In this document: positions 3,816-53,289 of the stretch, one piece after another
Layout of the letters: every line of letters starts with the position of its first letter
Position numbering within the stretch: position 1 is the stretch's first letter
Source: Nemertoderma westbladi
Lineage: Eukaryota; Animalia; Xenacoelomorpha
NCBI GenBank assembly: GCA_032718475.1
Contig: JAUCBJ010004814.1
Location: 1-64,000, forward strand
Length of the DNA: 64,000 nt
Reading direction: 5' to 3'
The notes under the pieces: generated by a model
What the model was told of the DNA's origin: nothing
Databases searched by the model: none
Seen by the model: only the letters and a program-made list of their open reading frames with translations
Program-made: the position numbers and the translations under genes

Positions 3816-4294
3816 TATATTGACCTAACAGCAAATTAATAAGCATAAGCTTATAAATAGAAAACAATCAATGAGGAGTAGCGCCTATCTAAACATTACA
3901 ATCAAGCATCAGGCACTCTTTAACAACACAACATAAAATAGCAACTCACTAGTATATGGCGCTAATAGCACTAATGATGGTGCTAGTAATAGCGCTAGTA
4001 ATAGCGCTAGTATAAGAGGTCAAGACCACCCAAGTTACATGCGGTCTTCCTGGCTAAACCCACTAGGGTATCGTAGTACTGCAAGGCCGAGACGAAATCT
4101 GGATTGTCAGCCCCCAAATGCTGTAATGACAACCAGTCCCCGGTCCCCTAACTGATTAGCCCGACCACAACTACTGACCCCCACCAGCATTGCCCCACAT
4201 TGGATCCTCCACTCCTCCTTCCATCGCTTCCACAGTGCGCCCGCTACGCCTACCGGTACCCTTAACCCATCATGCTAAAGCGAACAATTACCAT

Positions 4295-4834
4295 TGTGAC
4301 GGGATCCAGGAAGGATCCCGGTTTATCCGGTTTGTCAGTTCACGCGTCCCCGCCGTGTGTGAAAGATAAAAGAGTTTGCGTTGTTCGTTGTATGTAATAT
4401 TGGGATATATAATACAGATATAGATAATGGTGGATAAAAGTTATTATTGTATATGGAAGGCGGGAGACGGTAATTGAAGTCCCGGTACTTCCCTAGCTAA
4501 ACTATTTCTACTGTAACACCAATAATACTGAGATAACTGAATGAGATGATTACTGCCAACTGGTTATATTGCACGGGTTGGCCTTGTTGCTCTACCTAGC
4601 CGATGCCTTTCCCCCCTCTGATTGGTTGATACCATTGTTGGCGCCCATTGGAGTGTTCCCGTTCACTCCACCTATTCTCTCTTGGTTAGGGGTTTGGCCC
4701 CTGACCCTCATTGTGTTTCTCCTTCCCATTTTGTTGGGGTGACACGAGTTATTGGTTGCCCAATCTCGTGGCCCCCAATATTGCTTATCGGCTTACTTTG
4801 TGGGTTTGGGTTAGCGGGATTGAATAAGCTAACA
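4295..4834 (-). repeat. 3' LTR of BEL element A
   Basis: Direct repeat of 17398-17937 with about 7 substitutions; on the minus strand it is immediately preceded by the PPT. Confidence 0.95.
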
Positions 4835-4843
4835 CTCCCCCCC
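4835..4843 (-). promoter_or_regulatory. Polypurine tract of element A
   Basis: Minus-strand GGGGGGGAG abuts the TGTTAGC start of the 3' LTR. Confidence 0.85.
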
Positions 4844-5547
4844 ATGCTATCTTCCCAGTGAGAAAATAGCATCCATCTAAAGTGCGCTACAATCCCGCTG
4901 GATCCCGATCTAGTATTGGGTGTGGGGTGGAATTCTTTTCCCTCGGATCCGGCTTTCCAGGCCGCTCCCTATGGGTATGATAATGCTACCCTGTACGCCT
5001 GGCGTCCCATGTCGGGCCGATCGCACTCACCTCTCACACGACCTTTGTTTCCCCAACACTTTCGCCCTGACTCTACTCTTCTCCCATACAGACTCTCCTC
5101 TTTCCCGCTCTAACTCTCGGACCTCCCTGTCCCTCACTCAGCCTCTTATTCCTCCCCCCACACTAGAATTGCATCCGCACTCTCTCCACACTCCGCACTA
5201 TTACTCCGTCCCCCTTTGACTACCTTATCCCTTCTGACGAGTCTCACCCCCCCTCCTGTGCAGTCGCACTCAAGAAGTGTGAAATCGTCTGGTGTCTCGT
5301 CCATAGTGCCATAGTCAGTTATCCACCCAGTCCCAGTAGCTAATTGAGAAAGGTTGTATGACTATAGTACTTACTTCGAATGTATATTTATGACTAAACT
5401 ACTGATTACTACGTACGTACATACAAATTGCACTTATTTTATTACTTGCATCATTTTAATTTGTACTTAATAGTTCGTACGTCCCACGTGGCGCCTTCCA
5501 GGCATACCACGTCCAAGTCTCAGTTTCTCTCTCTCGGTCCTGGGAAC

Positions 5548-7547: not shown

Positions 7548-8039
7548 CCCGAACTCTCCCGATCACTCATCTATAAGGTGGTGCCTTACCAAGGCGCAAT
7601 ATAAGCGAGTGATGCAGTTAGGATGGTCTGTGTAGTTCGAGAATGGCCTATTTCTATTCCAAATGCGCCTTTTAGCCTAAATTCTCGTTACTTAATTCTG
7701 TAGCTAATAAATGTACCCTAATTTACAATTTTGTCCATTGCTTTAATTATGTTCCAGAATTTTCCTATTGCTGTTACCATAATTTGTAATTTTCTAGCCC
7801 TATTTATTCTATTTATTTTTAATTTATTTTTAACCCTACTGTCCTACTATTTGCTACTGCCCATCCTATGGATTGTTCTATCTCCTAATCCACATTCTGG
7901 CCTACTCTGTGGGCCTGTGCAGTACAACAGTATGCGTCGTGTGGCCACACGATTTATCCAGCTGTACTCACATGCCCCCCTCTCGCTACTAACTGCTAAC
8001 TAATATCTATACTATATACCCTTCTACCTCTATCTCTAT

Positions 8040-8729: not shown

Positions 8730-11700
8730 CTAAGGTGCCCCTTCTAACAGACAGCATTTCCCTACAGCTCTCCTGTAGGTTTTTCTGTCCTTCGCAACTA
8801 TCTTGCCACCTATCCGCACTTCTACCGATCGGACCCTTCCGTCCTCATCGGAGTAAGTGCCTACAACTCTCGCCAACCGCCACTGGTTGTTGATGATAGT
8901 ATCATCCGTAACGATTACGAGATCTCCCTCTCTTAACTCCCTATTCGGCTTCCTCCACTTGCTTCTTTTATGTAGCGTGGGTAGGTATTCCTCGACCCAC
9001 CTCCTCCAGTACTCTGCGCTAATTGCTTTAGCGACTTTCCAACTTTGGCGGGAGTGTATGTCGTCTGGATCTACACCCCGCATGTCGATGGTCGCTGGCC
9101 TTTCCATTAGAAAATGGCTTTGCGTTAGCACATCTAATGACTCAGGGTCATCATTCTCCGGGTATAGCCATCTGCTATTAATGACACCCTCACACTTCGC
9201 AAGTACTGTTCTCAAGACGTCCTCTGTGACCATATGGGTGTTCATTAATTTCGTCATGAGACGCTTCGAACTGCCCACCAGTCTCTCGACGCATCCTAGT
9301 GTATGTGGTGCATACGGCGTCCTTCTCTCCCACTTTACTTGTCGTCGTCTCATGGCTGCCCTGACTTCCTCCCCTTCCAAGATGTCCAAGGCCTCTGCCA
9401 TCTCGTTCTCTGCCCCCACAAAATTGGTGCCGTTGTCGCTGTATATCACTGCGATCGTCCCACCTTTATGGTCTCTAAACCTTTCTAAAGCATTAATGAA
9501 TGCTGATGCGGTTGAGTTCTTGGGAGAGTTCTATCCCTACCGCCCGTGTGTTGTTACATACGAAAATAATACCGTAGCATTTCTCCATATGCCGCATCAC
9601 CTTGATCTTTATCGGCCCGAACATGTCCACACCGCAATGCATAAATGGCTGGTTGTGCTGTCTTACCCTATTCGCCGGTAGTGGCGCCATCTCCTGTATG
9701 GCTCGATCCTTCTTTGCTCGTCGGCAGGTCTGGCACTGCCCCACTACCGCTTTTACCTTCTTCCTCAACTGCTTGACCCAATAGGTCCTCCTTATCACCG
9801 TGAGGGTTCGGTTGGTGCCCCCATGCAATATCGACTTGTGGGAGTCCCAGATAATCTGGTGGACTATTGGCGATCCTGTAGGGATGATGATGGGCTTCGG
9901 TGGTACGATGATACTATTGTTGTAACCCACCCTAGAGTTCATTACTAGAATCCCTCATCATTAAGTTGTGGTGACAGCGTGATCAGCTCGCTGTCCCGTC
10001 GAAGATGTTGTTGCTTACCGACGCGTTCCACCTCGTCGCAATAGTTCTTCCGTTGTTCGTAGCGGATGACTGCTTTGGCCGCTCCTTCCAGATCTATCGT
10101 TGCCCCGATCTTCTTGCCTTTGCCAACTCCCGCGAGGAAATTCCCGAAGGCTCTCCAGTACGCCACTAGTTTCTTGGTCTTATACCAACTAGAGCTGTAG
10201 CTGAGGAGTTTATCCGTCGGGTTATCGCATAGTTCTTGTTTTGGTTGCACGTCCCTAATCTCCCTCACCATCTGGGAGTATATCTCTTCTCCCTCTGAAT
10301 CTCCTTCTTCTCCCTCTGACACTACTTCTGAGCCCGGGTCCACCTTTCTCATCGGCGGCCAGGCCTCCTTATCGCTCAGAAATTGTGGCCCATGTTGCCA
10401 CAATACTTCCTTCTTCAAGAAAGTGTGGCGTACCACGCCCCTCGACAACAAGTCCGCTGGGTTCTCGTCTGTTGGGCAGTAGTGCCACCAGCCTAACTCT
10501 GTCGTCGCCCTTATTTCGTCCACTCTATTCGCAACGAATATTGGGTATTGCGTTTTCTCATTATGTAGCCAGCCAAGCACTACCATGGAATCCGTCCAGT
10601 AGTGTGTCTACACTATGTTTGGTATTGTATCCATTAGGTAGGTCGTGGCCCTAACTCCTAGTCTCGCAGCTGTCAATTCTAGTTTGGGAACCGATGCCGA
10701 ATCTGGTGGTGTTGACTTCGCCTTGCTGAAGGCGAGTCTGGGTTTATGAGCCCCCTCTCGTTGTACTAAATAGAGTGCTGCTCCGTATGCCTCTAATGAC
10801 GCATCGGAGAACATATGTAGGTCCAGGCTCGTCATGTTCCCATCCGGGAAATACACTCGCGGTATGCTGTATGTTCCCATCTGCTCCAGGCTCTCTGTCC
10901 ACTTATGCCACTGCTTTATAATCTCTTCCAGGACCTCTGCGTCCCACTCATCCTTTAATTTGTATACTCTCTTGAGTATCTGTTTTCCCGTGACTAGTAA
11001 TGGGGATGCTAGGCCTAGGGGATCGTATATCCTTGCTATGTACGATACATAGCCCCTCTTTGTGTGGATGTCTGCGCCCTCCTGGCTTAACTGGTACATC
11101 AGTTCATCTGTCTCTTTGTCCCACACGATTCCCAGTGCTTTCTGTTGAGACTCTATCCTCTTGTTTGCCATGTCCTGCCCCTTGGTTGTTGTGGGATTAT
11201 CCATGGTCGATTCAGGTCTCCTATCCTCTATCGCCTTGATAAATTCCTCAGAACTGGATTGGAATTTGGTTAGGTTAAAACCGGATCCCTTAAGGATGTC
11301 ACGAACCTCGCGCCCTGTGTCCAGCAGCTCCTTAACCGTATTTCCAGACTCCATCCCGTCGTCTACGTAGAAGCCGCGTCGAATCATGTCGACGGCTCTA
11401 GTGCTGCATTTATCTTCATTTCCCTTCACCGTGTCTCTTAAGGCCATAGTCGTTGTAAATGAAGACGACTTGGCTCCCATGTTCTGCACTATCATCTTGT
11501 ACGTCGGTACAATCGACGGTTCTTCATCGCCGTTGTACCATAGGAAGCGTTGACTATCGCTATCTTCTTCCGTTACATGGACTTGGTTGAACATGCCTTC
11601 TATGTCACAGGTGAAGGCGTGTTTCCCATTTCTAAATCTAAGTAGGACCTCTATCCCTGAGTTGTAAATGTTGGGACCCTCTAGCAGATAGTAATTTAGA

Positions 11701-12903
11701 CACTTTCCGTTGGTCTTTGCCGACGCGTCCACTACCATCCGTAGTTTACCTTTCTTTGGATCTAAGGCCACGTGGAGTGGCAGGTAATAGGTCCTATCCG
11801 TGTTTGGTTCGTCGACCGGTAACTCAACGGCCCATCCTTTCTCGACGTACTTCTTAATTGTCTTATGGATATACTCATTTTTCTCAGGGCTCCGTTTTAA
11901 CGTCTGCTTTAATTTGCGAAGCTTCGTAAGTACCATCCCTCTGTTGTCGGGTAACGGTAGCTTCGGTAGCTTCCAAACCATCCCTATGGTATATCGCCCC
12001 TCATCGCATGTCATCGATTCAATCCATGCTTTGTAAAGCCTGCTTGTCTTCTACCGAGGTCCCGACCCCGGTCTCCTTTAGTCCCTCAAAATCTTGCCTG
12101 AGCAGTCTCTTAAGCTGCTCCTCTGCTCTCTCATCACCCATTTCCTGCATGGTTCCCGCGAACATGCATCCTGATGTCTCCGACATCCTAAATGGTATCT
12201 TGCTCTTGATTGGGCCACTCAGCGTCCACCCGAATGGTGTCAATATCGCCACCGGGTCACACTGCTTGTCTTCGCCGAAGACCGTTTGCATTCTTTCATG
12301 GGCTGTTGGGCAGTCCATTCCTACTATGATGGATACCTTCCTAACGTCCACTTCTGGGATTGAGAAGTCAATGTTGTCCAGGAATTTATATTGCTCGACC
12401 TCGATGTTGGTTGGCCGCCTGGCATTGATATTAATTGACTCTATCACTTGGATGGGGTCGATGGTTGCCCCGTAGTCGCATCCCGGTGCCACCGCTGCAA
12501 TTGTGCACCATCCAGTCCTCATCTCCAGGATCTCATCTTTACTAGAGATGGTTGTTACCGCCATTCTACTTGGCCTCGTTCTCAATCCTATCTCTTCGGC
12601 CACCCATTCCTCGACTAATGTGAAGGCAGCTCCACTATCAACCAGCATCAGTGTGGTTACTGATTGATTGCCTTCTCCAATCACTCGCACAGGTACTACC
12701 CCAAGTAGCACTGTTCCTCTCTTCTTCGCCCCTACTGTGCTCGTTGCCATTGTTTGGCCCTTCCTTTGACCGAACTTGACCGGCGTCTCCTTGCATTGCC
12801 TAGCTCTATGTCCACTCATCACGCATCGCGAGCAGATCTCGTTTCTCGCCGCATATTCTACCTGATCTTCTCTAGGTAGCGCTTGCCAGTACCTGCAGTT
12901 CAT
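8730..12903 (-). pseudogene. pol: BEL/Pao pol: aspartic protease, RT, RNase H, integrase (several stops and frameshifts)
   Basis: PR LVDSGA (12019-12903); RT YYLPLH, LRMVVDAS, DIEGMFNQV, FYVDD and RH FSDAS...PKLEL (10608-12014); WTDS...FVANRV...NPADLLSRG (9945-10586); IN HHCC, GVDMFGP, SDNGTNF, GCVERLV, WRRWVEEYL (8730-9942). Confidence 0.95.
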
Positions 12904-15900
12904 GGTTTTATGAAGCGCATTTGTATGTAGCTGGCATTTGCTGTTTTGGTTGTAGCCGTCCTTATACAGTGCATCGCGTATCGCAGCTGTGTTTGTACCA
13001 AAGTCCCTACTATTCTTATTGCTTGGGTTCGGCCTACTGGACGTACTGGGGTTATATTTATTTGTGTTGTTATTTCTCCCCTGTCCGTTCCATGGTGTGG
13101 TCTTACCTTCGGCTACCTGTGGACTTGCAGTCCCCTGCGTCGCTGCGTATGGCAGTGATTGCCTTAGCTTTGGTAATGCGTTTGACGTGTTGTGCTCTGG
13201 TTTCGGTCTATGATAATCCGTCTTTGGTCCCTTTCCCTAGCTATCTTCACTATAGACTGGGTCGGTTATTAGTTCAGCTTCGTAATTCAAGAAGCTTGAC
13301 ATTTCTTCTAAACCCGGTTCCGCACCCTTTCTATCTCGAGTGGAGAAGGCGATTTTCCTCCACTTGTTGCGCAGCCAGCTCGGTAGTGCCTGCGCTATCG
13401 TGGTGAAGTTATTGGACGCGTTGAGCTCGTATGGCGCGTCTAGCGTCTTCAGCACGATTAGCGCCTTTTCGACTTTGTTAGCGAACGTCTTAATGCTAAC
13501 GGGATTATCCTGTAGGCCACCCGATGTTATGCCTCTCAGTGTCTGTCTGATGATCTTGGCCGGGTGCCCATATTCCCTGTCCAGTGCCCACCATGCTGTC
13601 GTGAAGCCGCCCTCTATGCCTTGATATTGCCTCACGATGTCGTATGCTGGGCCTCCCGTGTATACTTGCAGATATTTTAGGCACTCCGCCTGCGTCAACT
13701 TCTTTGTTAGTATTTCGTTACTATACATGCGCCGAAACTGTAGATATTCTTCCGGCCTACTCCCATCGAATTTGAATGGTTCCACGGGTGGTAACTCGAT
13801 ACTCGTTTTCAACGCATCGATCAACGTGGCCATCCCCATCGCCTGCGCTTCCAATGGGTTCGATGGATGCTGTATAGTTTCTCCTGTCTGGTGCGGTCCG
13901 TCCGTCCTATTTTCTGTCTTCCTTTGACTTGGGTATGTCATTGGGGGTAGCGGCCCCCTCCATATTTCTGTGTCGCACGACCTATTTTTATCCACGGCTC
14001 CCGTTGTTCTTGCTCCTATCGGGGTATATTGTTGATATTGTGATGGGGGAATGTCACCCTGCCCCCCCCCCCCCCCACCGGTATGTTCGGTACTGGGGTT
14101 GATGTTAATATATTGGGGCCCATGCACCTATCTGCAATAATTCCCCCCTCCCCTGGGTATATGTTATGTCCCTGCATGCTGTAGTCATACTGCTGCACTG
14201 GTAACGGTATAGGCCTATCAGCTTCTGGCCTACCCGCCGGTATGTACTCCGCGACTTCCGGGTTTAATCCCGTCGTCCGCGCTATCCTATCGCCTACATT
14301 GCCTCTGTCAGCATGGCCTATGGTATGTGCAGTAAGGCCTACAGTATGTCCTACAGTCTGCATGTGTCGCTCGGGATCAAAGTTTATTCTTCTCGAATAG
14401 TCCTCTCCGCGGCTACCGTATTCTCGATCGGTAGGTATATCCCGTCGGAAAGTTTCTCTTCAACCCCCTATACTGCTCTCATCTTCGTACCGGTACATCG
14501 CGTACCCCTCCATCGGCGCGTAATGCGCCTCGCCAGGTCGCATCTCTCTGGGGCGACAGCAATCTCCCGAAGTTCGACCCCACTGACTCTCCGTTCTCAT
14601 CTCGACTACCGACGGCTCACTATCCGTCCTCGCTCTTCTATCGTTCGCGGCGATACTTCTCCTACTCTCTTCTCCTCTTCTCCCTACAGTGCAATATTCC
14701 CGTTCATGAGATCTCTCGTCGACCTCCCGGTTAAATTCCACTACTCTTCTTCCCTCTTCTGATCGGGCTCGACGCTTCGTCCGCCCTCTCACAACGTCAA
14801 CCTGTCTCTCTCTGCTCGGTCGCCAGCCGTTGGGGATACTCGCAATCCCCCTATCATTCTCCGTCGCTGGGTGTTGCGGTTTACCTATTTCGGCCCGCGC
14901 ATTATCCGTTGACGCCTGTGGGGCGCTCTCTACCCCCCCTTTTCGCCGCTAACTCGCTGTAGCCCCCCCCCCCACTCGCCACATCTAACTTCGCTATCTC
15001 TCACCCTGCTACTATATCCCTCTCTAGTCGACACAATGTTCCTACTGCGGCTGGGTCCATTCATCCCCGCCTCTCTCTCCACCATTATTTGGCCTACCGG
15101 GCCTACTCTGGGTTGGCTCAACCCCGCCACCTCCTGCCTACTAACTACGTGGCCTACCAGGCCCCCCTCGGGTTGACTCAACCCCACCACCTCCGGCCTA
15201 CTAACTACGTGGCCTACCAGGCCCCCCTCGGGTTGACTCAACCCCGCCACCTCCGGCCTACTAACTACGTGGCCTACCAGGCCCATCCCGGGTTGGCTCA
15301 ACCCCGCCACCTCCGGCCTACTAACTACGCGGCCTACCAGGCCCATCCCGGGTTGGCCCAACCCCGCCACCTCCGGCCTACTAACTACGCGGCCTACCAG
15401 GCCCATCCCGGGTTGGCCCAACCCCGCCACCTCCTGCCCACTAACTATGCGGTCCATCAGGCTGGCTTCCTGATTATACATGCCCGATGCGTTCACATTA
15501 ATAGCACCACAGGCACCGCCATTGGTTAAGTCAATTAAATCTTGCACCCCAGTTAAATTATCTTGTGCACCCAAATTAGAAACGGAATTATTTTGTTCGT
15601 TCAAAATAAAGTTTTCCGGATTATTTTGCGCAATTGCGTTACTTAAATTATTTTGTAAGTTCGAATTCGGGTTATTATTTAAATTATTTGGATTATTTTG
15701 TGTAGCTACATTAATATTAGGATTACTTCCTACATTAACATTAGGATTACTCGGGTTTAAATTTAAATTACTGCTACCAGGTAAGATATTTCCTGCAATA
15801 AAGGTTTGGTTAGAGTTCTCCAATACGGTACTATTAATATTAACGACATCTACTGTAGCATTATTATTACCCCCCCGCCCGTACGGTCACACCAGTTTTG

Positions 15901-17329
15901 GGTCTGTCGTGCGGTCCCTGTAAGTGGGGTATTAATAAATGTATCCACGGCCCCTGGCTCCTCGAAAATATTCGAGCCAGTCCCGCTCTCAGACGCCCCT
16001 ATCCGCGCCAGTTCCAGTTCGCACGCGCGTCTAACTCCGTACTCTATAAGCACGCTTTGGCGTTTTCCCAATTCTTTTCGCTCACGTTCCTCTCTTTCCA
16101 CTCTCTCCCGACACTCCCGTGCGCTCTGCTCAGCCAACTCTGCCACTCTCCTAGCTCCCTCCCATCGCCTCACGCTCCTTACGTTCCTTTTCCTCTCTCG
16201 CCTCACGTTCCTTACGTTCCGCCTCACGCTCTTTGCATTCCTTTTCCTCTCTCGCCCCACGCTCCTTGCGTTCCTTCTCCTCTCTCACCTCACGCTCCCT
16301 GTGTTCCGCCACACGCTCCTCTTGTTCCTTTCTCTCTATTTCCTCACACTCCCTAAGGATTTTCACGGCCCTTTCGGCCCTCTCTCCTGTTTTTCTAATC
16401 AGCACCATTTCCTTCTCCAGCAGCATTCTCCCCTCCTCTAACCGTCTATCTACCTCCCTCTGACCTTGCACTATCAGGTCGAGATGGTACGTGGCATTTA
16501 TCTCTCTCACCCGTCTTTCTTTTACGGAGGATGTAGCAGACTTATCGGTTGTGACGGATTCCCTCCGCCCTCCCATCCTACTAATTTCCCCCCTCCTCCC
16601 GGAACTCCCTCCGACCGACGAGGCCGAATCCTCGGGGTTAACCTCGGATTCGCCCTCCTCAGGTCTCCTCCAGCCCACAAATTTTATACCCTGGGCATCG
16701 ACCAAGTATGGCCCTATGTACACTACATTAGGTTGCATACCCCTACACCACCATAAGTCACACAGTTCCTCAGCAACCCCTCTCGCTCTCTCCTTGGCCA
16801 GTTCTCTCTGCCCGAAGCGCATCAGATAATTAAAATGTATATTCGACTCACCTAGTCGTTTCCTCAGTCTCACCTCGTCTATCTTCGCCCCCTCCTTGGC
16901 CTCCTTTAGTAGTTTCCGGGTCGCGTTGTAGGCCCGTCGAAGTTGATCAGAAACCCCGACGTCCTCGTCGCCAACCTCTCTTCCGTCTCTCCGGGTCCGA
17001 CGTCGTACCGGCGGCCCCACCGTCGCCGTTCCGGTGGGCCGTCCGTCGCCCTCGGCCTGTGGCGGGCCGGCGACATCGGTACGTTGACCGTCGTCGTGTG
17101 TCGACTTGTCTCCTTCTCCTTCCAACTCACCCTCTCGGTCTCTCAACTCGACTCCCCCTCCTCTCGACTCGACCTCTGGCTCCAGACGGCCCCCCTCATC
17201 CTGAGCTGCCGGATGACCCGTTACCGATGGGTCCGGCGTCGTGGGCCTGTACCATCTGGTCGCGGCCTCACGGATCGTTAGTTCTTCGTCCGGGGTCCGC
17301 GTCGGTGTCGTCTCTCCCGACTGACTCAT
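12904..17329 (-). pseudogene. gag: BEL/Pao gag, very long: coiled coil, Asn-rich and 20-aa-repeat region, DUF1759-like capsid, Zn knuckles
   Basis: ORF pieces 16151-17329 (E/R/K coiled coil), 14930-15823 and 13237-14127 (FKFDGSRPEEYLQFRRMY...LKYLQVYTGGPA), with Cys/His knuckles at about 12790-12935. Confidence 0.85.
15093..15470. repeat. 60-bp coding tandem repeat (about 6 copies) in gag of A
   Basis: The unit ACCCCGCCACCTCCGGCCTACTAACTAC... recurs every 60 nt and encodes VVSRPEVAGLSQPGMGLVGH-type 20-mers. Confidence 0.9.
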
Positions 17330-17388
17330 CTCTCTTCTATAGATTGGTGGCTGGTAGTTACTGAGTTCAACTAGGGCGGCAGCTCTTT

Positions 17389-17397
17389 TTCAATTAC
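17389..17397 (-). promoter_or_regulatory. Non-tRNA primer-binding-site position of A (GTAATTGAA), complementary to LTR site 17573-17581
   Basis: It abuts the 5' LTR, lacks TGG, and is the exact reverse complement of a 9-mer inside the LTR. Confidence 0.6.
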
Positions 17398-17937
17398 TGT
17401 GACGGGATCCAGGAAGGATCCCGGTTTATCCGGTTTGTCAGTTCACGCGTCCCCGCCGTGTGTGAAAGATAAAAGAGTTTGCGTTGTTCGTTGTATGTAA
17501 TATTGGGATATATAATACAGATATAGATAATGGTGGACAAAAGTTATTATTGTATATGGAAGGTGGGAGATGGTAATTGAAGTCCCAGTACTTCCCTAGC
17601 TAAACTATTTCTACTGTAACACCAATAATACTGAGATAACTGAATGAGATGATTACTGCCAACTGGTTATATTGCACGGGTTGGCCTTGTTGCTCTACCT
17701 AGCCGATGCCTTTCCCCCCTCTGATTGGTTGATACCCTTGTTGGCGCCCTTTGGAGTGTTCCCGTTCACTCCACCTATTCTCTCTCGGTTAGGGGTTTGG
17801 CCCCTGACCCTCATTGTGTTTCTCCTTCCCATTTTGTTGGGGTGACACGAGTTATTGGTTGCCCAATCTCGTGGCCCCCAATATTGCTTATCGGCTTACT
17901 TTGTGGGTTTGGGTTAGCGGGATTGAATAAGCTAACA
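17398..17937 (-). repeat. 5' LTR of BEL element A
   Basis: Direct repeat of 4295-4834, upstream of gag on the minus strand. Confidence 0.95.
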
Positions 17938-18349
17938 ACCGTATCGGCGCATGCATTTACAAACAGTCTGACAGTTGAAAGGAAAATCTTTGTAAGGATT
18001 TGCTACATCACAAAGATTAAAGAAATCAAGGGTCAGTCCAAGCAGTAATCACTATTCAAAGACATTTATCAAGCAAGTGAAAACAGCAGAAATCAGCATT
18101 TGCAATTAACAGAACTAGCAGAATTAACAATTTACAACGACAAAAAGTGTAAGAATAATTAAGAATATTAAGCGAACATTAACGGAGATCAAGAAGTGAA
18201 TAAGTGAACCAACTGAACAAAAAATGGGTATGACGCAATGTTTATCTCATTGGTCCAACAAATCCTACTACCATTAAACCAACCTAAATAGATAAACCAA
18301 TGTGAGCGCCGGATTGTGGCCCTGTGCCTCTCAAACTGTACAAGCAGAC

Positions 18350-20199: not shown

Positions 20200-22140
20200 T
20201 GATTTTTAACCAGTTTTTCCTGATCAACGAGCGACCTTGAAAATCAGTATAGCTTCAGGATTACCAAAAAAAAGGCAACGTTTTACAGTATATCATTTTT
20301 TGCTATTGAACTTTTCCTTCTGGGACACCAGAATGACACCAATATTGGTTTCGCTTTAACAAAAACATTTATAACTAGTTTCATTGTAATCAGCGACAAC
20401 GAAAACCCGTATACCTTCAGAATTAACAAAGCAAACACAACATTTATTAGATTGACATTTTTTTACTTGTCTGTGTTGTATTTTCAAAAAAATTGAAAGG
20501 TACAAGATTTTTTTCAATACAGGTTTTCTGGGGCGCCGAATCCATTGGAAAATAATTAAAAATGATGTGATTGCTGTAAATGTCTTCCTAATAGTGAATT
20601 GTGAATTCCTAATTGTGAAGTTTTCGAGTTATAGCACCATTTTTTAAATTTATTTTGTGCACTTTTTTTAAGCGTTTTTTGAAAATTACATTTCATGAAA
20701 TATGATTTGTAATCTCTATTTTTGATTTACACCGGTTTTTTTGGTGTTTGGAATTAGATAGAATTCATATAAATTAATTTAGAAATTCCAAACTTGTTTT
20801 TTCCAACGTGTGCCAAATTTTGGTGCAGAAACCAAATTTTGAGATATGCAATTTTTGTAAATTGATTGTTTGTACCTGTTTTTTGCGCAATAGGGGTTTT
20901 GGGGGAATTGTGCTGGATTACGCAAAAACGGCCACAAAGGGTGAAGATCTGGGATTCACACTTCAAGAACGCAGAAGTAGTAGATATCCGGCAACTACAG
21001 TCACAGACACCGACTTTGCGGATGACATCGCCCTGCTCTCTAATACGCTAGCAGATGCACAGCTTCTACTAAATAAAGTGGAGAGGGCTGCTAAGGAGGT
21101 TGGATTGCATATAAATGCTACCAAGACCGAATTCATGACCTTTAATGTTGATGGAAACTTGACAACCATTGATAATAATCAACTAAGGCAGGTCGATGAC
21201 TTCCAATACCTTGGATCATGGATAGAGAGTAGCAAAAAGGACATAGAAGTTAGGAAAGCAAAGGCTTGGATAGCTCTATCAAAAATGGATACCATCTGGA
21301 AATCAGATCTCTCCAGGCACCTGAAGACCAAGTTCTTTCGAGCCACAGTGGAAAGTGTATTTTTATACGGGGGTGAGACCTGGACACTGACTAAATCACT
21401 TGAACAACGAATTGATGGTTGCTACACAAGACTACTAAGGGCAGCCCTAAACATCAGCTGGAGACAACACATGACAAACGCCGAGCTTTAAGGTACAATA
21501 CCACCTGCATCAACCACCCTCCGTGAACGCAGATTAAGATTCAGTGGGCCCTGCTGGCGAAGTAAAGACGAGGTCATACCAGATCTACTTCTCTGGCAAC
21601 CAACTCATGGAAAGCGTAGTCGTGGACGACCTGCCATAACATATATAGATCAACTTGAAAGGGATACTGAACTTGGGAGAAACGAAATTGCGACAACTAT
21701 GGAGAATCGGGAAGCCTGGAAGGATCTCATTTCCACTGTCCGAGTTCGCTCGACCTAGTAGTAGTAGGAGTTTTGGGGGGTTCTGGTTTCGATGGAATAT
21801 ATAAGAGGTGCATCAGCACGGTGCATGCAACTTGTATTTTTCGGTACTGTGTGCAAAATTTGGTGCCTTCACGAAATTCAGCATTGGACATCTCAAACTT
21901 GTACTTTTTGGTGATGGGTACGAAATTTTGTGCTAGCACCAAAATTTCCCATACGATGCCGGAAAATGTGAGAACCAATGATCTGGAAAATATGAAATGT
22001 ATTCCGCTAGAATCAGTGCTCATGAGAAATGTGAATTTATAGTGTGATATGTATAAGTCAATTAAATTTTTGTGTTAAGCCTAAAAACTGCTGGTTACTT
22101 GTTTTTTTCATTTTTTTTGCCTACGTAGAGCACTTTATCA
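20200..22140. mobile_element. Degenerate, rearranged relative of the non-autonomous piggyBac family at 25599 and 56997
   Basis: Shares blocks such as TTTTTGATTTACACCGGTTTTTT, GCTAGCACCAAAATTT and GCTGGTTACTTGTTTTT with the complete copies; no intact termini seen. Confidence 0.7.
20906..21764 (+). mobile_element. 5'-truncated RTE-clade LINE fragment
   Basis: RT C-terminus DFADDIALL...FQYLGS...RLRFSG; (TAG)n tail; 15-bp TSD TAGGGGTTTTGGGGG (20891-20905) / TAGGAGTTTTGGGGG (21765-21779); nearly identical to the copy at 31098-32665. Confidence 0.9.
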
Positions 22141-28554: not shown

Positions 28555-29735
28555 TGTAAAGGCTTTTGCGGAATTAGCTGGTTATTTTCCCCGCAAAGTA
28601 CTCTGTAGTTGTTTTAACGGACATAAAAAGCCGTTTCCTTACTGTACCGGTGTTTTAGTGGACATAAAAGTCATTTCTTATGTATGTGTACTTTAGCGGA
28701 CATAACTAGTGATTTTATGTCGCAATAAGCCAAATACTCTAAACATCGGAACTCCGATGACGACATCTATCAGCTGTGTCCACGTGTAACTTTTCTTTGT
28801 TCTTTGTTCGTTCTTTGTTCGGTCGACCAATCAGAGCGGTTTTCACTCTGTGTTGGAGATTGTATACAGAAACTCATGCAATTCAGTCAGTGTGTGTATC
28901 TTTCTAAGCCCATAACACCGGCTTAGGATTCTTCTGTACTTCTGTGGAAGTTTCAGACTTTAGCAAAACATTAGTAGGCTTTGGTCATAGAAACGTATAA
29001 CTGTTATCAAACCACACCGCACCACATATCCTAATCATATTGTCAACTATAAACACCACATTTTTACTGCTATTTACTGTCGGTTATTAATTATATCAGT
29101 TGATGGAATATTGTTATATTTGGATAATATCGATAAATAATCATAAAACCCCCAATCTTCTTGATATACTGAAGGTAAGAGACCGGTTACATATAACAAT
29201 TGCGACTTACATTAAAGTGGTTTTGGAGTGAATCTAATGCTATTTCATAGGCACTACATGAGTCGGTTGCTGTTCTCTTTATATGTGACTAAAATTAGTG
29301 AAGGTTGGCAGATCGGTGTGCAGCATTGTGCGGTAGTGTGCATGATTGTGACTGATAACAAAGCATCTCCTAAAGAATGCGCTTTATACGTGAACCAATA
29401 GCCATCCCGTTGTGTCTAGTGTAAGTCATAACTCTGTTTACATACTTAGAGCGCCACGTCCTAAAGGAACTGTTAATATTTCCCGAAAGTGAATAATATT
29501 GGTTAGAGATTATATATTAACAATCAGTCGAATAATACAGTAGGCCTACACCGCAATAAGGTCAAAGCTTCCGAATCCAGTCTCCCGGGTATATCCAGCG
29601 GGTGAATGGTCGCGCATAGACAGGCTTCGGCTAATGTAGTGTATCAAATACTCGTCATAGGCTAAAGTCGATTTATAATCTAGAAGACATCTAAATTTGG
29701 CAGGTTAAACTGCTAAAGGTCTGAAAGCGCGAACA
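28555..29735 (+). repeat. 5' LTR of element C (1181 bp)
   Basis: Near-identical to 43824-45019, which carries an extra 15 bp. Confidence 0.95.
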
Positions 29736-30021
29736 ATAACAGTTATTGAGTTCTAATTGCAGTGTAGGCAATAAATACAGTCTAAAGTACCGGTTGACCG
29801 GTACCCAGTAGGCCTAACTACCTAACTACCCGAACCGGTACTTACAGCAGTACAGGTACAGCAGTATTATTCGATTTTGATAATTATATACCGGTAGGTC
29901 TTAATAAGTAATCGGGGACGCCTGGTTTTTATTGAGATTTTACTTAGGCCTATTTCTGTCAGTTTTATTTATTTGAAAGTTAATATTGAGTAGAAGACGT
30001 GTAAGCCTGCTCAGATTGTAC

Positions 30022-35762: not shown

Positions 35763-36989
35763 GGGTGACTCTAACAGGCGGTGGCGGACTCGTGAGGGTC
35801 TGGGGGCACGTTAAATTGTTGGTATAGTGCAGGGGAGTTACTGAAGGCCCTCGTGTCTAGCGAACCATGAATCAACATGGTGCCGTGGTACCGTCTAGTC
35901 GGCCTGTTGCCGTACTGCCAGTCCTGTACACAGTAGGGGTGGTGGCTTAGTGTGATCTGTGGTTTATGCGGTCTATGTGGTAGGTCTATGTTTGGTATGT
36001 ATGAGTTGACCAGACTCTTTGCTGTCTCCAATCGGTTGCCGAAACGTGTCTTTTCCCAGGGTAGCACTATTGGAATGGAGGTGTTGCATCGGAATGGGCA
36101 GGATTCTGATGATTCTGTTGGTACTACTATTGGAATGGAGGTAGCACCCGGAATATCCGCTGCAAGGAGGGGATGGTGGTAGTGTGGTCCGAGTGAATGA
36201 TACTCTGGAATCTGTGGTTTGTGTGTGGACGATCAGTGGCAGTTTGCTTGAGCTTTCTGTTGCTGTGGGTACGTGGTATACGTGAGTGTATGTATGGCCA
36301 CTGCGAGTGAGTATGGGAACCCTTGCCGGTTGGTCTAGACGCCGCTGGTATTAGTAGGACCCTATCTTTACAGCGCCCCAGCATACTTTGTGCACACAAA
36401 GTTATTTTGCCCTGACGGCAAAATAAGGTACTCTCGGCTCTTTTAACAGTCGATACAATTTAGTCCCCTCTGATTTTGTCCCCGATTTTGTCTTTCCCGA
36501 TTATGTCCTCTGTGTGTGCATGGTATGTGTCAGATTTTGTGTTTACCATAGTGTACTTGATATTTTGAACATCTATTGAGTACACGTGTACAGTGACTGG
36601 TAAGTGGTTACTTGTTCCTAGCTTTCGAGCTAGTCAGTATTGTTTGCGGAACCGATTTCCCCTCAATACTGCCAGTGAGGCGGGTGAAAACGTGTCAAAA
36701 TTCCATGTTGGGTAGCGCAAGCCCACTTGGGACAAGACCGTCGGTTTGGCTCAAGGGCGACCTTGATGCTCGATCGCTATCGACTGGTCCACCCGCCTGT
36801 TGACTCTCTGAGTTGGCTCAATGTACAGTCAGGCCACAGTAAGATGACAGTAGGTGAACTTTGTGCTATTCGGCTACACACGACGAGCTGTGCCGGTGTG
36901 ATCGGGGGATTGAAAATTGAACCCGGGAAGCATCGGGCTACCCTCCGGCCCGGTCTGATAAAAACGGAGTCGGACTGGCCCCAAGGGTA

Positions 36990-39357
36990 GTGGAAAAGCG
37001 TCCTCCTCGTGGGTGCGCCTCGGGGAGGAGCCCAGAAGGACATAAGTGGGAAAATCTGCAAGAGAAGCAAGACTACATAGATAAACAGAGAACAGCTACT
37101 CAGTGGCAGCTGATAAGTCGATCCACTCCCAAACGACAGGGATTTACATCCTCTGATGAAGGCGATACCACCGATCCTGAAGGCGGAGGAAATAGATCTC
37201 GTCTAAGTAGGCGTAGAAGAATGTCCCACCGTCAGAAATTGCCTGATTTGCCCCCAGCTGTTAGAAGGCAACTAACTAACACAGACTTAGGTAGTATAGA
37301 ACCCATAGACCAAATAATTAAAATAGAAAGACTCCCTACTATAGTAGATGAGCCTGAAATAATTAGGCCTGTTCTCGAAGCCACCCCTTCGGTGATAGAG
37401 ACACCTGTACTCCCAGAACCTACCTCTAAATTCCCTTTGCACAGTACTAAACTACCTGTGCCCAGTAGGACTGTTCCCGAGTCCAAACCCGTCCTGGACG
37501 CCGAGCAAGACATCAAGAATTTATCGCCCGTCGTCTCTCATCTGCCCACTACTACGTTGGCGTCTCCCACTTCAGCAGTCGAGTGGGTGGATGAGGGGCG
37601 GCAAGGGATGAATCTCCTGCTCGGGCAGATGCAGGAGACTGTTCAACAGTTTAAGGGAACAGTAAGGGAAAGTAGGTTAGAGTTGCAAGAAGTGCAGCAA
37701 AGTATCGCGTTAGAACGCGATAAATTAGTAAATACACAAAAGGGTATACCACCACCCCCTATAACAATGTGTCAACCTGTTAGGCCTGAAGTATTTCATG
37801 CGCAAGGTGTGGAGCTTACACGCATCTATACTGCTAGTGAAGTAGAAACTCCTATAGTAAACCCTATTAAGGGTAATTATAAACCTGTTGACAATGATAT
37901 TCCATATAGACTTGATAATAATCCAAGAAATTTATATACCGATAACTCGATATTAAATAACACGATGGCCCAAGAAAGTTTTACGCATCAAATGGCTAGA
38001 ACCGAAGCCCGTCAAGCGGTAAAGGTGGGAGAGATCGTCAAGTTCAATGGAGATGAGATGAAATGGTTACCTTTTAATGAATATTATAAAGATAACATAC
38101 AGAACTCTGTGCTATCTAACGGAGAGAAACTTAGATTCCTCATCGAGTGCTTGGAAGGATCTCCCAAGTTAATGGCGTTAAAGTTTATTGGACATCCAGA
38201 TGGATTAAGACAAGTTTGGGATACACTAAACATCAGGTATGGTAATAGGACTAACATAGCTAGGTATTTATATGCGAAATTAATGGTGCCCCGAAAGTTT
38301 CTTAGCAGCGGGATTATAGAGTTTTACAACGAGATTCAAGAGATCTGTAGACAACTAGATTGGTTAGGTAAGTCTCATGAATACCAAAATTCTATGGTTG
38401 TAGGACCCTTAGCGTCAACTTTGCCAAAGGGTGGAGTAGGTACACGCTGGGACAAGAAAGTGTTATATATGATGGAACAACAACGAAGAGAGCCTACCAT
38501 GGCTGATCTCATGTCATTCTTAGATGGAGAGGTAAAATTACAGCTCCTAAAGCAGTCCAGAGAGAAGTCGCCGGAAAATAAGGTAAGTGTGAAAACCGTT
38601 TCTAGGAGAAAGGTAAAACCAGTGTGCTATACAGACGACGGCGAAAGCCAGGCTTCTCGAGAGGAAGACAGCAGGAAAGACACGGAAAGATCTTACTATG
38701 ACAACAAAGCGCCTAAGTAAATTCAAGTCTCGAACCAATGACAGGAGAGAACAGGTAAGAAAAACTCCTCCTACGTCTCCTAAGAGAATTCATGGAAGAA
38801 AGCCCGAGGAAAGAACGAGTGTGCACAACGTTACCCAAAGTAAGGTAAGTAACATCAAACCAAAATGTTTGCTGTGCGACGGGCCGCACCGTTTAAGTGC
38901 GTGTGATGAATTCCTGAGGAAATCACTAAAGGATAGACGTGAAGTCATGTGGGATAAGCGGTTGTGTTATAATTGCCTCAGACGAGGACACCAACAGCGA
39001 ACCTGTTACTCCGACGCAAGGTGTGCAAAGTGCGGCGCAAAACATCATATCTTGTTGCACAGTGAATTCGAACGAAACAGCCCGAGTCAGGTAAGTGAGT
39101 CCGAACTACATGTCCAATTCAGTGATGTGAACGACACTGACCAAAGTTCTGAGATGGAAGGATTCTATACGGACGAATTCTCCGATGAAAACGAATCCTG
39201 TTACCTGATAAATACCGCAGTGTATCGAGCACTTATGTATGAAAAGGACACCGACAGTGAGCTCCCCCTAACTACTTCTGTCCGACAACCATCTTGGAAA
39301 GCACCAACTTCCAATGTAGGATTTTCCCGTAGTGCAGTTGAGGGTCCACGGACCTGA
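36990..39357 (+). pseudogene. gag: BEL/Pao gag of element C (one frameshift near 38700)
   Basis: KFNGDEMKWLPF...EKLRFLIECLEG (DUF1759-like); BEL knuckle triplet CLLCDGPHRLSAC, CYNCLRRGHQQRTC, CAKCGAKHHILLH. Confidence 0.9.
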
Positions 39358-40520
39358 AAGGAGTTATATAGTGAACGCCCTCCTTGACTCCGGTAGCACA
39401 GGAAAATTCATCGACAAAGAACTAGCCGAAGACATCTTTGCTGGACAACCCAAGTTCCGAACTAAGTTAAACATGTCAGGAATTATGCAGGTTTGGAAAT
39501 CTACAGTAATAGCAGATTATTATGTAGGTGCGTTGTCCACCCCCCAGGATGAACTAGCAGAACACAGTATAAGGTCAGTAAAGATGGTGGCGATAAAGAA
39601 CTTCGCTACCAGCCAAGTAGAACCTTATAACTGGGATGAGGACGATTTCACCCAGCAGCTTAAGATACCTAGATTCAACACAGACTACCCTGGAGTGCAA
39701 ATACTCATCGGCCAAAATGCGCATGAAGCGCTTGAGACATTGGAGAAACGGCCTGCTCAACCGCAACCACTACAAGCCTATGCGGGAAGAACTAGAGTAG
39801 GTTGGTACTTTACTGGCCCTTCCCGTAGAACTCTCATGGAAAGGTTACCCAAAGAACGGTTCTACCAAGTAAGTGAATGGGAAGCGGAGAGCAGTGAGGT
39901 GGACGACCCAACTGAGGGAACACCATACTCCTCAGATAATGACGAAATTAACTCCAATATAGATCAATGGAGACATTGCCCCGAGACGATTAATCTAGTC
40001 GACATCGCTTCCAGAGGAGCAACTCCTCAAGAACTGACAGATACTCCAGACTGGTTAGGTGGACCCGACTTCCTAAGTAAAGAAGATGAATGGCCTCCCC
40101 ATCGTACCACGGCTGAGATTAGACAAGCCAAGGGAGCGGAGAAAGTCAAACCTAAAACCCGGACGAGTAAATCAAGGTTATTTAAACCCGTGATAGATCT
40201 GTCTGTACTACACATTGCCAGGGACGACGCTGTGGATCTAAACTCCCCCACCGCGATCCGATCTGTTGTGGAGATCAGAGAGAGAGACTGGAGATCTGGA
40301 ACACCAGATGTCTCGCCGGGACTCTCACCTCTCCTGCCGGGAGCGATGGACCACTATAGATCCTGGAATCGGCTTTGTAAGGCCGTCGTGTATTTGAAGC
40401 GATGTTTCTATCGTCACTATTCCAGGACGAAGAGGAAACCTGGAATTGTATTCGAAACATAGCAGCTCAATCGCCCAGTTGGTCGTTTATGTTTACTGGA
40501 AAGAGAACTCTCCGGAAACT
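39332..40520 (+). pseudogene. pol: Deleted pol of element C: protease, then RNase H tail, then last residues of integrase
   Basis: VNALLDSGS (PR), then a jump to QWRHCPETINLVDIASRG...WLGGPDFL, then a jump to RPVGRLCLLE. RT and the IN core are absent. Confidence 0.85.
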
Positions 40521-43823: not shown

Positions 43824-45019
43824 TGTAAAGGCTTTTGCGGAATTAGCTGGTTATTTTCCCCGCAAAGTACTCTGTAGTTGTTTTAACGGACATAAAAAGC
43901 CGTTTCCTTACTGTACCGGTGTTTTAGTGGACATAAAAGCCATTTCTTCTGTATGTGTACTTTAGCGGACATAACTAGCGATTTTATGTCGCAATAAGCC
44001 AAATACTCTAAACATCGGAACTCCGATGACGACATCTATCAGCTGTGTCCACGTGTAACTTTTCTTTGTTCTTTGTTCGTTCTTTGTTCGGTCGACCAAT
44101 CAGAGCGGTTTTCACTCTGTGTTGGAGATTGTATACAGAAACTTATGCAATTCAGTCAGTGTGTGTATCTTTCTAAGCCCATAACACCAGCTTAGGATTT
44201 TTCTGTACTTCTGTGGAAGTTTCAGACTTTAGCAAAACATTAGTAGGCTTTGGTCATAGAAACGTATAACTGTTATCAAACCACACTGCACCACATATCC
44301 TAATCCTATCAATGCAAATCATATTGTCAACTATAAACACCGCATTTTTACTGCTATTTACTGTCGGTTATTAATTATATCAGTTGATGGAATATTGTTA
44401 TATTTGGATAATATTGATAAATAATCATAAAACCCCCAATCTTCTTGATATACTGAAGGTAAGAGACCGGTTACATATAACAATTGCGACTTACATTAAA
44501 GTGGTTTTGGAGTGAATCTAATGCTATTTCATAGGCACTACATGAGTCGGTTGCTGTTCTCTTTATATGTGACTAAAATTAGTGAAGGTCGGCAGATCGG
44601 TGTGCAGCATTGTGCGGTAGTGTGCATGATTGTGACTGATAACAAAGCATCTCCTAAAGAATGCGCTTTATACGTGAACCAATAGCCATCCCGTTGTGTC
44701 TAGTGTAAGTCATAACTCTGTTTACATACTTAGAGCGCCACGTCCTAAAGGAACTTTTAATATCTCCCGAAAGTGAATAATATTGGTCAAAGATTATATA
44801 TTAACAATCAGTCGAATAATACAGTAGGCCTACACCGCAATAAGGTCAAAGCTTCCGAATCCAGTCTCCCGGGTATATCCAGCGGGTGAATGGTCGCGCA
44901 TAGACTGGCTTCGGCTAATGTAGTGTATCAAATACTCGTCATAGGCTAAAGTCGATTTATAATCTAGAAGACATCTAAATTTGGCAGGTTAAACTGCTAA
45001 AGGTCTGAAAGCGCGAACA
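43824..45019 (+). repeat. 3' LTR of element C (1196 bp)
   Basis: Preceded by PPT-like GGGAGTGG (43816-43823); direct repeat of 28555-29735. Confidence 0.95.
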
Positions 45020-46001: not shown

Positions 46002-48537
46002 TGTGATGGGATCAAGGATCCCGACTGGACTGTTATAGTACGCGTCACCGTTCCTGCTTGGGGATCGTGCTAATCAGCTTTGGCCGAGGCTGTAGGGGAA
46101 AAACAATAAGAGTTTGCTGTCGTCTTTCGGTATTAATAAATACATGCGGTGATAGCACAATGTTAATAGTAAAGCAGAAATACAGATAATATTGACTGAT
46201 GAATAGTTTCCAGTATGGCGGTGTCGTCCAATAACTATAACCGATCTGTCCTAAACTGAATAACACAACTGATGCACTAATCTAACAACCTGAGATAATA
46301 TATGATTGATACATTGAATATTGCTTCACCTCTTACACTACTTTGGCATTCTACCCAATGGATGCTTTCCTGTTCCCTATCACGTGCTTCCCTTCCCTCT
46401 ATTGGCTAACATACTACTTGCCACCTTGGCGCTCTCTGGGAGTGTTTCCCCTCCGCTGCTAGCCTCTACTAGCCATATTCCCTCCGAGGTGGTTTGACCT
46501 CTAACCTCTCTTTCTATGTGGCTTCGGGGCTTGTGTTGCCCCCCCCCCCCCCCCCAATGTTGATTATGATACGAGATTGATATTGGTAATCTCGTATCTC
46601 CAACATATTGCTGAAAATGCCACTAGTCACATTTTCTGGTGGGTAATGAAGTGAAATGAATCTGCTTACACTCCCCCCCCCATGCTATCTTCCCAGTGAG
46701 AGGATAGCATCAACCTCAAGCGCGCTACAATTCCGCTGGAACCCAATCTACTATCGGGTGTGGGGTGGAGTTATTTTCTCAGGGTAGGCTTTCCAGGCCG
46801 CCCCCCTTTGGGTGTGATATTGCTACCCCTCCTTGGTGCAATCGCAACCTATGTTGCACCAAGATATCTGACGTCTCTGTTCGAGACAATTGTGGACTCC
46901 TCTCAGACAATTTTATAAAACTTTGCTCTAAACTCACTCTATCCTCACTTCACTCTAACCCATATGGACCCTATCGCCCCTTACTCTCTCTCTCTCACAG
47001 CTCGCTCCCCACATTTGAATTGCACCAGTCTACTTTCTGCGCACGTCAACACCTCTCCGTACCTCCCCCATGCTCCTCCTATACTCAACCCACACTTGTT
47101 TCACCCTACTCACTCCTGACAGGCCTCACCCTACCCTTTTGTGCCATCGCACTAAAGAAGTATGATTCGTCTAGTGTCCCGTCCTCCTGTCATAGTCAAT
47201 TGGTCCCCAGTCCCAGTAGCTAGTTGAAAAAAGGGTTATATATGACTATAGTAATTACTCTGATTATATTGATTCTAATTATATTCTATTGATTATTACA
47301 TACGTACATACTAATTGCACTTTATTAATTTTTGCACTTAGGAGTTCGTATTACTTCACATGTGGTGCCTTCCAGGCATCCCCACATCTCCCCCTCCGAG
47401 TCCTAGTTCGCTCCTCCTGTCTTCAGGAACCATCTCAGTTCCTTCCCTCTATCATCGTCCTGTCTGGGTCGCTTCCTTCCCTCTGGCTTGTCCTCTTTGA
47501 GACTCCTCATTCTCGCCGTTACCGCCTTGCTAATTCCCGTGGTTGATTCCTTGGGCGCTGGTGTTACTAGCTCCCGATAACGCTTTGCAGGTGGCCCTTC
47601 TGAATGCCCCTCCTGCTTCCCCCTGGTAGCGTCCCACAAGATCATCTTCATGGTTCGCTGCACGTGCTCCACCAGAAAGTCTCTAATCTCTCCTCTATCC
47701 TCCGGCGTCCATCTATCCAAATACCTCCGCATGTTGATAACTCATCCATACGATGCCATCGTCGCTACCTCTTGGTATGTAAATGGAAGTAAGTCTCCTC
47801 TTAATAATTTCCAGATGGGCCTCCTGATTGATGTTGAAGAAACCCCACCGGAACTCCTGGGCCTTCATTCACTGTCGCGTCATAACACCAACGTCGGCCC
47901 ACTCCTCGAAGATCTTAAACTTCTCCTCGTCGTCCATACAGTCGCACTGGCGCCCATAGTGCCCTCGGAAGTTTCAATTTGAGCAGCGGTTGTGCAACCT
48001 CGGACACGCTCCCATCCTGTGGCTCGACTCGCGGCAGTAGAAGCAGCTCGTCCCCTTCTGGAATCGATACAAATAGCTCTTTTCCTGGTGAGTCAGTCTC
48101 CTGCAGTAATCACAGTCTTTTGCCCCAAGCGGTCTCCTATGTCTGTGGAGCAGTTGGTAAGCAAACTTCTGGACGTTAACGTGCCTGTCCATGTCTACAT
48201 CCTCGGCTCGCCTCGGCATTGTCTCTCCAAACACTACCCTTGGTGCCATTCCTGGTTGCTCGCCCAACCTGATGGTGCTCCCCGCAAAATCCATCACAGG
48301 CTCCTCGTGCACCCAGGTCCGCTTGCTGGGTTTATCCCAGAAGGCCCTCACCCTGCTGGCCATCACCACTCTCCCACCAACTCAGTCCGTATCTGAGTGG
48401 CCAATCCTCTTGATGGGCGGCATCTCCCCGAACTCGTTGTCATCCTCCTCCCCCGCTGGGACTGGGTCCAGGCCCGGTATCCCGGCAGACCCACTGTGTC
48501 CCTTCCCACCTTGGCTTTTGCCCATAACTTTCCATCC

Positions 48538-52536: not shown

Positions 52537-52547
52537 CAGTTGTTTAC
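52537..52547 (-). promoter_or_regulatory. Non-tRNA primer-binding-site position of B (GTAAACAACTG), complementary to LTR site 52771-52781
   Basis: Exact 11-nt reverse complement within the adjacent LTR; no TGG. Confidence 0.65.
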
Positions 52548-53289
52548 TGTGGCGGGATCGAAGATCCCAACCGGGTTGATGTTTTAGGCATCACCGCTCT
52601 ACCACAGGGATGCTGGGATGGTGCTAAATAACTTGGCTGAGGCCGTTGCAGGAAAACAATGAGAGTCCGGTGTTGTCTCTTTGATATCATAAAATAACAA
52701 TAGCACAAAAACTCGTGGTAGAAGTACAGATATGATGTGTACCGTTATGTTGTATCAGTAAACGATGATGGTAAACAACTGATACCAGTCTGCACTAACT
52801 GAGAAATTAACTAAACTGAGTCACAAACTGGTAGCAGGAGATAATATATGATTGATATACCAATATTGCCACACACCTACGCTACCTTGGCCTGTTACCT
52901 AACGAATGCTCTCCTTTACCCTAATCTCCCACTTGTCACCCTTTCACCCTCTGGGAGTGTTTCCCCCCTGCTGCTAGCCTCTACTAGCTGTGTCCCCTCC
53001 GAGGTGGTTTGACTTCTAACCTTCCTTTGTGTGTGGCTTCGGGGTTTGTACAGCCCCCCCCCCCCCCCCCCCCCCCCCGAATGTTGGTTGTGATACGAGA
53101 TTAATATTCCTAATCTCGTATCTCCAACATATTGCTCAAAAAATGCCACTGCCCTATTTTGTGGTGGGTAAGCAAGCGGAGTTGAATCCGCTTACAATGT
53201 CGGCCAGTAATTTCTTTCACGGTGGAAAATCAGTTCAATCAATTTAAAATATAAATTGGGGAAGATAGTAAAATTGAGCATGGCTTAAA

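Follow-up and report, generated by a model that had tools for sequence, protein, structure and literature searches.

Candidate self-primed reverse transcription in BEL/Pao elements of Nemertoderma westbladi

According to the ICTV, the Belpaoviridae (BEL/Pao elements) are primed by a host tRNA-Arg or tRNA-Gly on an 18-nt primer-binding site (PBS), and their replication is called poorly understood (PMC8742986). Self-priming is described for the Tf1/sushi group and predicted for Tcn1 and TAR/Houba in the available text of PMC6317226. The model of self-primed reverse transcription used here is that of Tf1 (available parts of PMC4600332 and PMC5341516), and a three-duplex pretzel that includes a duplex downstream of the PBS is proposed for the same element (available part of bioRxiv 10.1101/2022.12.06.519325). 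For Tcn1 (Ty3/gypsy) and TAR/Houba/Osr-1 of plants (Ty1/copia) the evidence is of the type presented here, namely the lack of a tRNA PBS together with an LTR complement of at least 10 nt located 0-5 nt after the LTR; these elements differ from ours in superfamily and host, and the available text of PMC6317226 does not mention an intron-split primer for them. The first-pass annotation of the DNA studied here, which had proposed self-priming, knew of no such description for BEL/Pao, and our search of the full-text literature agrees with it: the available parts of PMC8220671, PMC3286476, PMC13524379, PMC5443660 and PMC3601003 contain no BEL/Pao self-priming, and we found no discussion of the primer site in those of the BEL/Pao surveys PMC3118150 and PMC6238403, the Sinbad paper PMC554778 and the Atlas paper PMC9094657. 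A prior mention may exist in subscription papers, Repbase Reports, GyDB or supplements. The nematode BEL/Pao element Cer7 reportedly encodes its own tRNA-like primer, which would be a different form of primer independence.

The window, by which we mean the whole stretch of 64,000 nt that was analysed, contains three BEL/Pao elements, A, B and C. It also holds a tandem array of about 40 copies of a 31-nt unit (58554-59916) and LINE-type RT fragments at 20778-21491, 31541-32404 and 54091-54846. The parts of element A are as follows.

17398..17937, minus strand: 5' LTR of element A, 540 nt, TG...CA, 98% identical to 4295-4834
4295..4834, minus strand: 3' LTR of element A, with a copy of the primer site; TSD ACGGT/ATGGT
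4835..4856, minus strand: polypurine tract (PPT) region of element A, read from the sequence
13240..17329, minus strand: long gag region of element A in several frames, with a DUF1759 domain at its end; its N-terminal part is 49% identical to B
8733..13236, minus strand: pol of element A (Pfam, translations), encoding protease, RT with YVDD, Pao RNase H, integrase and DUF5641, interrupted by stops and frame changes
17389..17397, minus strand: PBS of element A, GTAATTGAA, adjoining the CA of the LTR
17573..17581, minus strand: putative self-primer of element A, TTCAATTAC, exact complement of the PBS

Judged by those of the gag and pol domains, LTRs, PPT and TSD that each has, elements A, B and C are BEL/Pao (Belpaoviridae). 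In A, Pfam recognises DUF1759, an Asp protease, RVT_1, Peptidase_A17 (E 4e-40) and DUF5641, and finds no chromodomain; the order PR-RT-RH-IN is that expected of BEL/Pao. TG...CA LTRs are accompanied by a PPT and a short TSD, and both A and C have two LTRs flanked by a 5-bp TSD (with one mismatch in A). Among the protein matches of A, 66 of 71 carry PF05380 or are otherwise BEL/Pao-like, at identities of at most 38%; we found no close protein relative, the best match being 35% over most of the query, and none among the viral contigs searched. In a quick tree, which contains no named references, A has a long branch, next to a clade that unites crinoid, scallop and metagenome elements, and A and the clade of metagenome loci lie apart from most insect and nematode proteins. 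The domain order, the PPT and LTRs of 0.5-1.2 kb agree with the ICTV description of Belpaoviridae/Semotivirus, whereas the 13.6 kb of A exceed its range of 4.2-10 kb and an 18-nt tRNA PBS is lacking in A, B and C (PMC8742986). About 3.9 kb separate pol of A from its 3' LTR. This region shares 75% identity with 47110-48535 in B and holds an extra broken reading frame (5500-7566, minus strand) and, near 6300, three Cys-His knuckle-like motifs; its extra ORF at 6714-7562, compared with Pfam, PDB sequences and the Atlas, gave weak leads but no family.

Element B, whose gag is 49-69% identical to that of A, lacks pol, and its closing LTR is of another kind:

52548..53196, minus strand: 5' LTR of element B, 649 nt
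52537..52547, minus strand: PBS of element B, GTAAACAACTG
52771..52781, minus strand: putative self-primer of element B, CAGTTGTTTAC
46002..46670, minus strand: LTR B', which closes element B; 74% like the B 5' LTR and without a complement to the B PBS

Given the 74% identity and the lack of a shared TSD, B' is unlikely to be B's own 3' LTR, and its sequence suggests that it probably comes from a sister family of B. Element C was absent from the first-pass annotation:

28555..29735, plus strand: 5' LTR of element C, 1181 nt, TSD GGCAT/GGCAT, 97.5% identical to 43824-45019
43824..45019, plus strand: 3' LTR of element C
28997..29007, plus strand: putative self-primer of element C, ATAACTGTTAT
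29736..29746, plus strand: PBS of element C, ATAACAGTTAT, adjoining the CA of the LTR
29175..29703, plus strand: candidate 529-nt LTR intron of element C, 3' of the primer site, with the same in the 3' LTR at 44459-44987; recognised by donor and acceptor motifs only
36921..40462, plus strand: gag of element C (DUF1759, E 9e-12; Cys-His knuckles), protease motif, RNase H end and integrase tail, from Pfam and translations; RT and most of RNase H and integrase are missing

Element C is thus a BEL/Pao deletion derivative. It is inserted into the remnant of a further A/B-like 3' region (45100-46000 and about 28400-28554), which B' adjoins.

The 5' LTR of A ends in ...TCACA and is directly followed by GTAATTGAA (17397-17389). 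As the earlier annotation had reported, the exact complement of this stretch, TTCAATTAC, lies inside the same LTR at 17581-17573, 184 nt upstream of the LTR end; a second copy is present in the 3' LTR (4478-4470). The resulting 9-bp duplex has a predicted energy of -7.3 kcal/mol, and its 9 nt are one short of the 10-nt rule of Neumann et al. (available text of PMC6317226). Element B has a different PBS, GTAAACAACTG, and an exact 11-nt complement in its own LTR at 52781-52771, overlapping TCAGTT, both as claimed before, and C has a self-match of the same 11 nt length. All three BEL/Pao 5' LTR/PBS junctions in the window therefore carry a self-match (9, 11 and 11 nt long in A, B and C), which begins in every case with the base that directly follows the CA of the LTR and has its own sequence: the three PBSs are unrelated, and each fits its own LTR and not the other two. 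The lack of a tRNA-type PBS, first proposed for A, applies to the three elements, none of which has TGG within 5 nt of the LTR end. An Inr-like motif was also said to mark the site; such a motif is indeed present at the sites of A and B but is not unique to them, since further ones lie about 60 nt upstream in A and the LTR of B contains three; with several such motifs per LTR, the predicted start site is one candidate among others. A start on the A of the Inr in element A would put only 6 of the 9 site nucleotides into the RNA, and in C, where an Inr-like TCAGTT lies about 100 nt downstream of the site, a start there would leave the site untranscribed.

The length of the match anchored at the LTR end was compared with that in 5000 dinucleotide shuffles of each LTR. 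The observed length was reached in 22/5000 shuffles for A, 3/5000 for B and 8/5000 for C, and at 0/600, 0/600 and 1/600 downstream control positions, respectively. Among anchor shifts from -6 to +6, the self-match was longest exactly at the LTR end (shift 0).

A profile search of metagenome contigs provided relatives. We worked with the best 80 of 450 BEL/Pao loci, a sample that leans to A's side of the family; 15 of these had a testable terminal repeat, and seven were dropped, either because the repeat does not end in CA (L042, L059), because it was a contig-end overlap with no flank (L021, L055) or as duplicates (L026, L048, L074). The remaining eight are distinct elements with the LTR end fixed by diverging flanks, and all of them have a self-match of 10-15 nt. 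It is contiguous in three (10 nt in L014, 11 in L068 and 12 in L025), and in the other five it runs across a GTRAG...YAG intron of the LTR (13 nt in L017, 11 in L028, 13 in L044, 11 in L063 and 15 in L073). For the seven with offsets of at most 5 nt from the LTR end, 0-6 of 300-500 shuffles reached the observed length; the match of L025, at offset 9, appeared only once the allowed offset went from 5 to 10 and lies outside the shuffle test. Measured against a complement of at least 10 nt located 0-5 nt after the LTR, B and C have 11 nt at offset 0, A has 9 nt, and seven of the eight relatives fall within offset 5. TGG is missing within 5 nt of the LTR end in seven relatives as well, the eighth being L044, where it lies at offset 1 inside the 13-nt self-match. 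In L014, L025 and L068 the LTRs are short (174-235 nt) and the self-matching PBS extends into an ATG that lies a few bases past the LTR, so that gag possibly starts inside or beside the priming helix.

When each PBS of the eleven elements was set against each LTR, the own LTR was best in 11/11 rows, with one tie; own matches measured 9-15 nt, and 2 of 121 foreign cells reached 10 nt, one of them 12 nt. The putative primer ends in A-Y in all eleven elements, and C follows in nine of them. Eight further loci with a clean LTR start, three of which repeat known families, were scanned from that start and are left out of the A-Y count, as the scan required A-Y. The known ends of two families were recovered, and four of the five new families had a self-match of 10-15 nt (0/60 shuffles each); L005 had none. 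Among the BEL/Pao loci sampled we found no tRNA-type element, so that BEL/Pao itself supplied no negative control. A splice-built primer was also sought in A, B and C themselves and rejected: matches across a junction fell short of the contiguous ones in length and lacked significance (171, 12 and 25 of 200 shuffles), and with canonical sites no match exceeded 5 nt.

Covariation between the PBS and the LTR site had been suggested as a check, and the genomic copies of A offer an instance. Copies were surveyed in contigs from four DNA runs, which stem from at most three samples and show a high-copy family. Among the 40 variants listed out of 300, one lies inside the PBS (17393) and one inside the LTR site (17577), and these bases face each other in a single predicted pair, changed from A-U to G-C. 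The pair is unphased, the contigs being short and no listed piece covering both sites, and the shares over the four runs are discordant, 58/60/76/47% at 17393 vs 35/6/48/100% at 17577 (in run X2, 60% vs 6%), with the LTR-side variant resting on 1-3 contigs per run. Since one variant per 9-nt site would share a pair at about 1 in 9 by chance, we take the compensatory variants as support and not as proof. The two bases past the PBS (17387-17388) also vary among genomic copies, at 24-79% of depth, and the A family as a whole may pair over more than the 9 nt of the window copy.

RNAs assumed to start at the primer site were then folded. The helix between primer and PBS (P1) dominates, with pair probabilities of 0.72-0.99 in A and 0.97-1.0 in B, and is accompanied by two other predicted helices:

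17562..17572, minus strand: 5' strand of helix P2 of A, directly after the primer; its partner is 17457-17448
17403..17423, minus strand: hairpin P3 of A, 8 bp, at the end of U5; 0/300 shuffles
52760..52770, minus strand: 5' strand of helix P2 of B, whose partner is 52599-52589; 0/300 shuffles
52568-52554, minus strand: hairpin P3 of B; 5/300 shuffles

In both elements the partner of P2 lies in U5, 50-60 nt before the LTR end, and both strands differ in letters between A and B. The P2 of A is predicted at -19.9 kcal/mol (1/300 shuffles) in the 3' LTR copy and is weaker in the 5' LTR copy (49/300); at 17571 and 17564 most genomic A copies match the 3' LTR. P2 reached 12/300 or better in 4/11 elements only, and none of the eleven gave a significant counterpart of the duplex that the Tf1 pretzel has downstream of its PBS. 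These folds also bear on the earlier description of the sites of A and B as homologous. MAFFT leaves them unaligned column for column in a poorly conserved stretch, but the structural layout is shared, and their equivalence is based on the helix that starts right after each site and the layout with P3, not from the alignment. Element C behaves differently in that the predicted pairing probability of primer and PBS is 0 in the unspliced fold and about 0.75 with the candidate intron removed, which brings the distance from primer to LTR end to 210 nt (184 in A, 234 in B). Its two sites are near-palindromes 739 nt apart and could be repeats of one binding motif. Because of the near-palindromic sites, the 739-nt gap and a pairing found in the fold only with the candidate intron out, C is the weakest of the three cases.

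Like Tf1, Tf2 and Tj1 (Tf1/sushi, Ty3/gypsy) as far as the available literature describes them, these elements have a PBS right after the 5' LTR that is complementary to a stretch of the LTR, with extra helices nearby, and the PBS of C opens with the same five bases, ATAAC, with which that of Tf1 begins (available part of PMC11042837). In contrast to the Tf1/sushi elements, A, B and C are not chromoviruses but BEL/Pao elements (Peptidase_A17, DUF1759, DUF5641); A and B have P2 and the U5 hairpin, and not the downstream duplex of the pretzel as the accessible description of it gives; and in many BEL/Pao relatives the primer is split by an intron. By inference they would be Tf1-like in working, but they lie outside the Tf1/sushi group.

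The missing TGG, the family-specific matches, the compensatory variants and the 8/8 relatives support the self-priming reading of the first-pass annotation, and we consider it likely, by analogy with Tf1 and from the sequences, that BEL/Pao elements of the A, B and C type use their own RNA as the primer of minus-strand DNA synthesis. As in Tf1, transcription would start at or upstream of the primer site, which would pair with the PBS in the predicted helix P1; in A and B this would be stacked on P2 and lie beside the U5 hairpin P3. RT/RNase H (A encodes a predicted RNase H region) would cut the RNA immediately beyond the 3' end of its paired primer part, after A-Y and usually before C. By the same analogy, the freed 3'-OH would be extended across U5 and R, fixing the right end of the LTR at CA, and the 3' LTR copy would restore the remainder of the site once strand transfer has taken place. 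Elements B and C, which lack RT, would be copied in trans. A, B and C would carry the primer ready-made, and many relatives would assemble it by splicing out the LTR intron. As only the RNA downstream of the cut would be copied from the 5' end, new copies would receive the primer, or the intron that splits it, by way of the 3' LTR copy, which would account for the coexistence of contiguous and intron-split forms.

An unlikely alternative is that the two paired sites form an RNA helix with a structural or regulatory role, serving packaging, dimerisation, a translation switch or a 5'-3' cyclisation via the 3' LTR copy that aids strand transfer, and that another molecule primes. All the evidence is sequence complementarity, the 3' LTR has the same site and the C sites are near-palindromic, points that favour this reading. 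The position of the pairing speaks on both sides: the paired stretch is offset by 3-9 nt in 6/8 relatives, yet in A, B, C, L044 and L063 it begins at offset 0, where the 3' end of a primer must sit, and it lies within 5 nt in 10/11 elements. The constant A-Y at the primer end argues against a purely structural role, as does the fact that no other primer site, with TGG and a tRNA-like stretch, is evident.

That an internal or half tRNA fragment primes, as in Bianca, Osser and Bryco, and that the LTR match is a structure shielding the PBS, seems to us quite improbable. Such priming needs no TGG, according to the available text of PMC6317226. Nearly every family, and even the variant within family A, would however need another tRNA fragment, whereas the known half-tRNA groups hold to one tRNA per lineage (same text), and each PBS tracks its own LTR. 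A scan of the window for tRNA genes turned up none. That the self-match arose by chance, or as a side effect of local inverted duplication, is effectively refuted: A alone, with 9 nt and 22/5000 shuffles, or the foreign 12-nt cell might have suggested it, but 3/3 window elements and 8/8 relatives have the match at the same functional position.

Self-priming thus stays our preferred reading for the window elements. With less assurance, we lean towards the broader view that a large, mostly aquatic branch of the Belpaoviridae does without tRNA priming and uses a primer from its own RNA, with the A-Y|C cut register, contiguous as in A, B and C or spliced from an LTR intron as in 5/8 relatives.

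The insertion site of A has a peculiarity of its own. The target (TSD plus the next five bases, ending in GTAATTG; 4285-4294, 17938-17942) is complementary over 10 nt to the primer site plus the three bases that follow this site; 10-mers of that 30-nt LTR stretch match 29 of 127,960 window positions, mostly the LTRs themselves. Tf1 has an integrase-independent insertion route by PBS homology (available part of PMC11042837), for which the match in A is 3 nt out of register, and a TSD is present. Nothing similar was seen in C or the relatives. As a single case noticed post hoc the match is probably due to chance, and primer-guided target choice by A is possible.

The proposal makes exact predictions, since the RNA ends would lie at 17573 (A), 52771 (B) and 29007 (C), and finders that require a tRNA PBS will miss or mis-end such elements. 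If it is true, BEL/Pao would be the third LTR-retroelement superfamily with self-priming, and the ICTV account of Belpaoviridae replication would need correcting. Self-priming also bears on whether tRNA priming or self-priming came first in LTR elements, a question raised in the available part of PMC3601003. Elements of this kind would be beyond the reach of tRNA-fragment silencing aimed at the PBS, and a splice-assembled primer would tie the start of reverse transcription to host splicing.
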